A stretch of 64,000 bases of DNA. Source: Escherichia phage SholemSchwarzbard. Position numbers and translations under genes: made by a program. The number at the start of each line of letters is the position of its first letter. The stretch's first letter is position 1. The notes under the pieces were generated by a model. It did not search any database, was not told the origin of the DNA, and saw only the letters and a list, made by a program, of their open reading frames with translations. Positions 7,637 through 8,206 of this stretch are shown here, one piece after another. Location: the sequence record PP925840.1. One strand, written 5' to 3'.

Positions 7637-7870
7637 TTATTTTTTACGAAAAATTGATTTATATTTATCAGCCCATTTCTCAATGACTTTTGCCGGGCCA
7701 TAGATAACAAAGTAATCGCCAAACTCTTCACCACCGAGTTGACCGAAATTATCTAATGCATCACGAAGAACTCCATGAGGCATTTCACCCATTTTATCTT
7801 TCTTGCCAGTGTAAATAAACTCAACTTTTACATCAGCAGTTTCAGCAATAAATTCTTGATACGTTTTCAT
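7637..7870 (-). CDS. capsid internal protein (77 aa) with T4 targeting sequence MKTYQEFIAE
   Basis: ATG at 7868-7870 preceded by GGAGA; N-terminus MKTYQEFIAE|T matches the recalled internal-protein targeting sequence and gp21 L/I-x-E cleavage context. Confidence 0.75.
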   Translation of the reverse strand: MKTYQEFIAETADVKVEFIYTGKKDKMGEMPHGVLRDALDNFGQLGGEEFGDYFVIYGPAKVIEKWADKYKSIFRKK

Positions 7871-7906
7871 TTTATTCTCCAATTTCACATTTGTTTTGAT
7901 AGGGTA

Positions 7907-7936
7907 ATAGTATCACTACTAAAACCCCGTGTAAAC
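7907..7936 (-). promoter_or_regulatory. early promoter cassette P2 (right inverted-repeat arm degenerate)
   Basis: Minus-strand GTTTAC (7931-7936) and TGn-TACTAT (7907-7912); left arm GATAGGGTA present, right arm replaced. Confidence 0.55.
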
Positions 7937-7948
7937 AACTTTGTGAAA

Positions 7949-8206
7949 TTATTTTAAATCTTCTAATCGTTTCTTCATCTTAGAACCATTTTTAGCGATT
8001 TCTCCTGCGTCAGAGCATAATGCTAAAAGTGCTTTAACTTTAGTTTGGTCTCCTTTAAAAGATGAAGGATCGACTGCAGCAGCAAGTTCTTTAATACGAG
8101 AGAAAAGACGCTCAGCTTCAGCTAAAGCCATTCCAAGCTTTACTTCCATACCATGAGAAGATTCAGTGATAGTAGTTTCTGTAGCAAATTCTTTGAAAGT
8201 TTTCAT
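7949..8206 (-). CDS. capsid internal protein-like (85 aa), targeting-sequence-like N-terminus MKTFKEFATE
   Basis: ORF track; AGGAAAA SD; N-terminal decapeptide related to MKTYQEFIAE. Confidence 0.65.
   Translation of the reverse strand: MKTFKEFATETTITESSHGMEVKLGMALAEAERLFSRIKELAAAVDPSSFKGDQTKVKALLALCSDAGEIAKNGSKMKKRLEDLK

Follow-up and report, generated by a model that had tools for sequence, protein, structure and literature searches.

Internal-protein genes ip5 and ip6 at the ipI locus of Escherichia phage SholemSchwarzbard, candidate injected counter-defence proteins

A stretch of 64,000 nucleotides from Escherichia phage SholemSchwarzbard (PP925840.1), referred to here as the window, was used for the analysis, and two short genes on its minus strand are the subject of this study. 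The gene ip6 (7637..7870) encodes an internal-protein precursor of 77 amino acids and ip5 (7949..8206) encodes one of 85 amino acids; the coordinates and lengths given in a first-pass annotation of the sequence were borne out. [quoted passage not shown] The conserved downstream flank is a homologue of trna.4 (7393..7578, minus), a predicted membrane protein of 61 amino acids (phrog_1692, E=6e-35), after which come the trna.3 and trna.2 homologues and then the tRNA cluster. By synteny with phages T4 and PST, and for the 57B flank also with Bas37 (phage KarlGJung, MZ501089), the slot between 57B/acb1 and trna.4 is the T4 ipI slot, or IP1 locus. The first-pass annotation had assigned the two genes to the ipII/ipIII slot, and this placement is wrong: in T4, ipII and ipIII are found some 8 kb from ipI, with denV and e on either side, and the window begins within the e.2-e.3 region, so that the denV-e locus is not reached. 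The two belong to the alternative internal-protein genes of the IP1 locus that were described by Repoila et al. 1994, an account of which is given in Comeau 2014, Rao and Black 2010 and Silas 2025. The window is part of a Tequatrovirus (T4-like) genome; over 7400-8800 the identity is 97.9% with Escherichia phage AndreasVesalius and 95.5% with T6, and 291 public phage records cover at least 80% of this stretch.

Comparison with public records identified both proteins as already known T-even internal proteins, and ip5 and ip6 are already known accessory genes of T-even phages. The protein of 85 amino acids is Ip5 by its 98-99% identity with Ip5 of T6, RB15, PST and Bas37, its equal length and its position as the first gene after 57B. 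Its 90% cluster includes the UniRef entry 'Ip5 ... Q38630_BPT6', and Ip5 records of the T6/RB15/PST type were deposited in 1994. Only one or two substitutions separate it from known Ip5 proteins, for example E10 here and K10 in T6, PST and Bas37. In RB15, ip5 is followed by ip9-ip7-ip8 rather than by ip6. The Bas37 counterpart, Bas37_0261 (85 amino acids, encoded upstream of bas37_0260), is 99% identical and is Ip5 on this evidence. Searches with tblastn found Ip5 at more than 80% identity in about 268 phage records. Ip5 paralogues at 41-54% identity were recovered with Ip5+Ip6 fusion queries; plain word-indexed protein searches gave close relatives alone. An exhaustive hidden Markov model search of 1.84 billion representatives resolved the Ip5 family into three full-length clusters at 50% identity and found neither cellular nor distant homologues. 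Neither Ip5 nor Ip6 had a match in Pfam, NCBIfam or PADLOC, and PHROGs alone recognised them.

An Ip5 paralogue of 93 amino acids (49% identity) was found by tblastn beside the lysozyme gene e, the true ipII/ipIII slot, in 228 further records. Phage slur07 carries such a paralogue (L005, 2501..2782) with the leader MKTYSEFLSESILNE, alongside an Ip6 of the window type in the same phage. The Ip5 fold is therefore present at both internal-protein loci.

The protein of 77 amino acids is Ip6, as judged from its 79-99% identity with genes annotated ip6 or ipVI: 79% with 'ipVI' of Yersinia phage PST, 83% with the T6 gene and 88-90% with 'ip6' of vB_EcoM_VR20 and VR25. It matches phrog_8111 'internal virion protein' (1e-51) and occurs in 250 phage records (tblastn), the lowest identity being 34% in a Karamvirus. 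Alignment with Bas37_0260, the product of the gene of 77 amino acids adjoining trna.4 in Bas37, revealed 65 of 77 residues to be identical (84%) without gaps (E=6e-49), and Bas37_0260 is on these grounds the Ip6 orthologue.

Both genes carry capsid-targeting leaders, as the first-pass annotation had proposed, and comparison with T4 IpI, IpII and IpIII found similarity in the leader only, with no full-length homology to T4 IpII or IpIII. The Ip6 leader, MKTYQEFIAE (7841..7870, minus), had been read as the exact T4 decapeptide, and T4 IpII and IpIII (translated from AF158101) do start with the same 10 residues. Ip5 starts with MKTFKEFATE, and its first seven residues, MKTFKEF, are those of T4 IpI. 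Here a T4-type capsid-targeting leader was correctly recognised, but the decapeptide boundary did not hold, since the I-x-E motif ends at E15; the Ip5 leader, comprising the capsid-targeting sequence and a linker, is MKTFKEFATETTITE (8162..8206, minus), with predicted cleavage by the gp21 protease after I-T-E15. The motif MK[ST][FY]xxFxxE heads three of the 555 Met-initiated frames of at least 40 amino acids in the window (64 kb) and none in 30 shuffles, so that the observation is real and not a chance occurrence. The reading frame of ip6 can be extended to a GTG at 7888 (83 amino acids); the ATG at 7870 is preceded 8 nucleotides upstream by a GGAG Shine-Dalgarno sequence, and with this start the leader falls at the N-terminus. 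Leader positions 4, 7, 8 and 10 are reported as key to targeting and processing (PMC9026906). The leader is kept in distant Gaprivervirus and Karamvirus homologues.

Analysis of the processing motif [LI]xE revealed a single occurrence in the whole of Ip6, IAE10, and gp21 is predicted to cleave after E10. In Ip5 the motif at the leader end is ITE15, and cleavage is very probably after this residue and not after residue 10, because residue 10 is polymorphic (E or K) and E15 nearly invariant, and because in Gaprivervirus a leader of 10 amino acids, MKTYQTFITE, joins directly to the same SSHGMEV... start. The end of the T4 IpI leader, ...STITE/A, resembles that of Ip5. In both AlphaFold2 models (predicted local distance difference test score, pLDDT, of 84 for Ip5 and 80 for Ip6), residues 4-10 form a short helix, which is followed by a linker with little order, and the lowest pLDDT in Ip5 falls at residues 14-16. 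Mature Ip5 (Ip5*) is predicted to comprise residues 16-85 (70 amino acids, 7.5 kDa, isoelectric point (pI) 9.2) and to form a three-helix bundle; mature Ip6 (Ip6*) is predicted to comprise residues 11-77 (67 amino acids, 7.7 kDa, pI 7.9, net charge +1) with a beta-alpha-beta-beta-alpha-beta arrangement, a small ferredoxin-like domain. The pI of mature Ip5 is close to that of T4 IPI* (9.0), and that of mature Ip6 is 7.9. The Ip5 model matched no PDB structure and, in BFVD, matched its own orthologue only, IpII and IpIII not being matched. Sequence searches of the PDB with Ip5 and Ip6 gave chance-level matches only. On the predicted structures, then, neither protein appears to resemble a solved structure or T4 IPI, IPII or IPIII. 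The T4-type machinery required for processing is encoded in the window: gp21 prohead protease (37207..37845, plus; Pfam Peptidase_S77, E=1.5e-111), expected to remove the leader in trans, the gp22 scaffold protein (37876..38685, plus; Pfam T4_CASP, E=3.8e-90), presumably the core that binds the leader in trans, and gp67 (36534..36782).

Three intergenic modules (repeat family D2) were identified at the locus; their coding strand carries TTTAC(A/T)-N17-TACTAT in each case. Upstream of ip5, the module (8219..8294, minus) combines TTTACA-N17-TACTAT with a 13-bp hairpin (-17.4 kcal/mol, z=-6.3), followed by an AGGAAA Shine-Dalgarno sequence; that upstream of ip6 (7889..7964, minus; hairpin -12.9 kcal/mol, z=-3.8) overlaps the last ip5 codons; and that upstream of trna.4 (7596..7636, minus; hairpin -16.4 kcal/mol, z=-5.1) marks the downstream edge of the internal-protein array. 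All three fit the consensus published for the promoter-early stem-loop (PeSL) elements of PST/T4, TTTACW-N17-TAYWAT with an overlapping stem-loop (PMC4122927). They agree with the PeSL mobile regulatory cassettes (Arbiol 2010; Comeau 2014) in the consensus, in the overlapping hairpin and in flanking swappable reading frames, no difference being noted, and the PeSL papers name the internal-protein locus as their first example (PMC4122927). At the homologous sites the record of phage fPS-90 is annotated 'predicted early promoter'. The module upstream of ip5 is almost base for base that upstream of T4 ipI, and the alignment remains good through the leader codons and collapses right after them. 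Since the similarity ends with the leader, the constant part is a 5' module made up of promoter, ribosome-binding site and leader, to which unrelated mature domains are joined, and this is the expectation of the PeSL-recombination model.

The first-pass annotation regarded the two genes as candidates for injected counter-defence proteins, for example against type IV restriction, and for Ip6 this idea is backed by its 84% identical orthologue, Bas37_0260, an inhibitor of McrBC. According to a preprint of November 2025, Bas37_0260 protects phage Bas37 from McrBC of E. coli K-12; it is required on K-12 BW25113 and dispensable on K-12 without McrA, McrBC and Mrr, its deletion makes the phage sensitive to McrBC specifically, and insertions are depleted only in McrBC-positive K-12 (bioRxiv 10.1101/2025.11.20.689424). 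Action against McrBC is thus shown genetically for the orthologue, and for the window allele we infer it. A precedent comes from T4, whose Ip1, Ip2 and Ip3 are each active against a different GmrSD enzyme of the type IV restriction class (Silas et al. 2025).

For Ip5 the functional signal comes from the insertion data of the same preprint (Extended Data Table 7, bioRxiv 10.1101/2025.11.20.689424), in which strains are compared with K-12; sheet CFE331 was left out of our comparison. Insertions in bas37_0261 were depleted about 4-fold in the uropathogenic strain CFT073 (log2 fold change (log2FC) -2.09, adjusted p<1e-5), and the changes in CFE299 (-0.01), CFE303 (-0.01) and CFE336 (+0.26) were not significant. 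This depletion stands in the preprint's own table and is not discussed by its authors, who from CFT073 cloned only SanaTA (bioRxiv 10.1101/2025.11.20.689424). A GmrSD homologue, c5421, is listed in the immigration control region of CFT073 (He et al. 2015) and is a concrete, though unproven, candidate target of Ip5. Ip5 may be an inhibitor of a CFT073-specific defence, for which c5421 is the obvious candidate.

Taken together, we consider it likely that ip5 and ip6 are interchangeable internal-protein cassettes of a hyperplastic ipI locus and that their products are injected, Ip6 acting against McrBC and Ip5 against another, strain-specific defence. The leader would dock each precursor into the prohead's scaffolding core (gp22/gp67/gp68), gp21 would cut Ip6 after I-A-E10 and Ip5 after I-T-E15, and the folded domains of about 7.5 kDa would remain in the head and be ejected with the DNA. 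Ip6 most likely binds and disables McrBC before the enzyme cuts incompletely glucosylated hydroxymethylcytosine (hmC) DNA; being near neutral, mature Ip6 is probably a protein binder rather than a DNA mimic. Glucosylation of the T2/T6 type leaves part of the hmC unglucosylated, and such incomplete glucosylation, if it holds here, would explain why these phages need an anti-McrBC factor; Bas37 has a beta-alpha-glucosyltransferase (bioRxiv 10.1101/2025.11.20.689424). Ip5 would most likely be an injected inhibitor of another, strain-specific defence, the CFT073 depletion being its sole functional signal. The presence of both proteins in virions and their injection with the DNA are suggested by the leaders. 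In the proteome of phage fD1, the IpI orthologue and a leader-bearing protein of 157 amino acids are both particle-associated; fD1 has ipI instead of ip5/ip6, and the fPS paper contains no proteome.

Several observations weigh against this interpretation. The literature yielded neither virion proteomics nor injection data on Ip5 or Ip6, the leader being the sole basis for packaging, and the T4 late promoter TATAAATA was not found directly upstream of ip5 or ip6, the nearest copy on the same strand lying at 9332-9339 inside gene 1. For the genes ip4-ip10, assays on additional GmrSD variants gave no reproducible inhibition (Silas et al. 2025), and restriction by the GmrSD of strain UTI89 is reported for T2 and T6, phages in which ip5 is present with or without ip6. 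The CFT073 signal of Ip5 comes from one pooled screen without follow-up there. Mature Ip5 contains two invariant internal (L/I)xE motifs, LAE30 and IKE40, and the mature forms of T4 IPI, IPII and IPIII and of Ip6 contain none; Ip5 could therefore be cut further, or the motifs could be shielded in helix 1. Finally, residues 1-45 of Ip6 are identical to those of Bas37_0260 and all 12 differences fall in residues 46-70 (beta2-beta3-alpha2), so that specificity may differ between the two. As regards the negative GmrSD assays, TOP10, the normalisation host of Silas et al., is not known to carry mcrBC, and anti-McrBC activity would therefore be undetectable there.

The distribution of these differences gives ip6 a mosaic structure. 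In codons 1-45 the proportions of synonymous (pS) and nonsynonymous (pN) differences from Bas37 are 0.08 and 0, and in the block of codons 46-77 (7637..7732) they are 0.58 and 0.20. Residues 46-70 look like an old recombined allele block. Positive selection on Ip6 was considered and rejected, as pS is also high in the divergent block and pN/pS is about 0.35. The ip6 of the window is the RB18/slur07/AndreasVesalius allele, and two groups of alleles can be told apart in public genomes, one of 35 records (95-99% identity) and one of 153 (80-90%). Compared with the Bas37 allele, that of the window may be tuned to another variant of McrBC or to a different type IV enzyme. A wider proposal, in which the Ip6 allele is so tuned, Ip5 acts against a CFT073 defence (c5421) and the reading frame at 3804..4277, described below, marks a third internal-protein locus, is tentative and less likely than not.

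Among the alternatives, it is unlikely that both proteins are early cytoplasmic anti-defence factors that are never packaged, with leader codons merely carried along by PeSL-cassette recombination as one block. The early-type promoter directly upstream of each gene, where a late promoter is not found, would suit such factors, as would a T4 ipI homology that spans promoter and leader and then stops. However, the leader and its [LI]xE end are kept at 34-47% identity in other genera, where the DNA cassette has diverged, a pre-made injected inhibitor is the best counter to an enzyme that cuts incoming DNA, and the particle association of the IpI orthologue and of a third leader-bearing protein in fD1 also argues for packaging.

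A second alternative accepts packaging and assigns both proteins a structural role in neutralising DNA charge or in core and head assembly, as is reported for T4 IPIII, without any defence target. T4 internal proteins are abundant (about 360 copies) and basic and, when salt is low, bind DNA; in IPIII mutants the assembly of heads is slowed (PMC9026906). Mature Ip5 is likewise basic, and both ip5 and ip6 are non-essential in Bas37 on a permissive host. A structural role is nonetheless quite improbable, given the specific McrBC-dependent phenotype of the Ip6 orthologue, the almost neutral charge of mature Ip6 and the defence targets now known for all three T4 internal proteins; the exchange of unrelated folds at the locus between phages is a better fit to an arms race.

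The internal motifs of Ip5 raise the further possibility that it is targeted to the prohead and then cut by gp21 at LAE30 and IKE40 into short peptides, like scaffold components. Although the invariance of both motifs in the family, and their lack in the other mature internal proteins compared, speak for it, we regard this as very improbable. Both motifs lie inside a long helix predicted with pLDDT above 90, and gp21 leaves some such motifs uncut; the mature domain of 70 residues is under strong purifying selection (pN/pS 0.04 in comparison with Bas37), and the CFT073-specific phenotype argues for a specific function. That the two genes are shortened or divergent forms of IpII and IpIII, as the first 10 residues shared exactly by the 77-amino-acid protein with T4 IpII and IpIII might suggest, is refuted by synteny with the ipI locus and by the lack of similarity past the leader (confined to residues 1-10 or 1-19), and among viral predicted structures the Ip5 model matched its own orthologue only.

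Several known systems come close to ip5 and ip6. Bas37_0260, an McrBC inhibitor of the injected type (equivalent to ip6/ipVI of T6, PST and VR20), shares with Ip6 the length of 77 amino acids, the slot beside trna.4, the leader and residues 1-45; it differs in the 12 substitutions in residues 46-70, the window allele being of the RB18/slur07/AndreasVesalius type. T4 IPI*, which acts against GmrSD of E. coli CT596, occupies the same locus, and its promoter, ribosome-binding site and leader module is near-identical to that of ip5. Its mature size (76 amino acids) is similar to that of mature Ip5 and Ip6, and the proposed logic, an inhibitor that is injected and acts with high specificity on a type IV restriction enzyme, is the same, but the targets differ and the mature part has no sequence similarity to Ip5 or Ip6. 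Its fold, determined by NMR (Rifat 2008, as cited in later papers) and described as two beta-sheets with helices at the two termini, contrasts with the modelled all-helical Ip5 and beta-alpha-beta-beta-alpha-beta Ip6. T4 IpII and IpIII, which inhibit GmrSD-ECOR21 and GmrSD-ECOR17 (Silas et al. 2025), have a leader identical to that of Ip6 and belong to the same injected, subtype-specific class; they differ in locus (denV to e), in size (100 and 193 amino acids) and in mature regions without homology. T4 Arn, the anti-restriction nuclease factor, inhibits McrBC, the same host enzyme as the target of the Ip6 orthologue; it is an acidic DNA mimic made after infection and is not known to carry a capsid-targeting leader, whereas Ip6 is near neutral and has the leader.

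No phage inhibitors other than internal proteins are known to enter the cell ready-made together with the DNA, and each internal protein characterised to date is known to disable a single, specific enzyme of type IV restriction. Matching Ip5 to its target and establishing whether specificity differs between the two Ip6 alleles would extend the map from inhibitor to enzyme, which matters for host-range prediction of T4-like therapeutic phages. If Ip5 is truly an inhibitor of a CFT073 defence, it would be the fifth internal protein with a known target. The genes themselves are no news; their value lies in the context, a compact counter-defence stretch of acb1 (anti-CBASS), ip5 and ip6 (an anti-McrBC orthologue). 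As 57B encodes Acb1, the gene order acb1-ip5-ip6 forms one contiguous counter-defence stretch.

Two observations concern acb1. The Bas37 screen showed a depletion of acb1 insertions, too, in CFT073 (log2FC -1.56, adjusted p 0.003). In phage TadeuszReichstein (Bas43; L010, 667..1122), 57B/acb1 occurs as two short open reading frames (59 and 68 amino acids) that jointly match Acb1, and the gene is apparently disrupted; the split acb1 is followed by ip6 alone (the window-type allele), without ip5. Upstream of 57B on the coding strand lie gp57A (8734..8976) and then gp1, the dNMP kinase (8976..9689).

The Shine-Dalgarno regions of ip6 (7871..7885) and trna.4 (7579..7592) contain GGAG, that of ip5 (8207..8222) has AGGAAA, and the leader region of Bas37 ip6 is without GGAG. 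In early mRNAs, GGAG is presumably the motif at which the RegB endoribonuclease of T4 cuts, and the contrast may mean different post-transcriptional control of ip5 and ip6.

A third leader-bearing open reading frame was found at 3804..4277 (minus). It encodes 157 amino acids (pI 9.5) with the start MKSYTQFLNE/AVLNE/A, and a perfect T4 late promoter, TATAAATA, lies 37 nucleotides upstream at 4314..4321 (minus). Its neighbours are an e.8-like gene on one side and the tRNA cluster on the other, the place occupied in T4 by rnaC and rnaD. The frame has 511 phage matches, is named 'hypothetical protein' in every record among the matches listed, and belongs to phrog_2280 (function unknown). The fD1 protein g140, one substitution away, is listed as particle-associated in the fD1 virion proteome, and the Bas37 orthologue, 0244, had no phenotype in the four strain comparisons (CFT073, CFE299, CFE303 and CFE336). 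This frame is probably an unannotated internal protein at a third locus.

Inside the tRNA cluster (5029..6623), a GIY-YIG/NUMOD3 homing-endonuclease gene resembling SegB (5846..6379, minus) interrupts a series of 10 tRNA genes, with Arg, His, Asn, Tyr, Met/Ile(CAT), Thr and Ser on one side and Gly, Leu and Gln on the other. Compared with T4 and PST, the cluster has a different set of tRNAs and a different position of the endonuclease gene.

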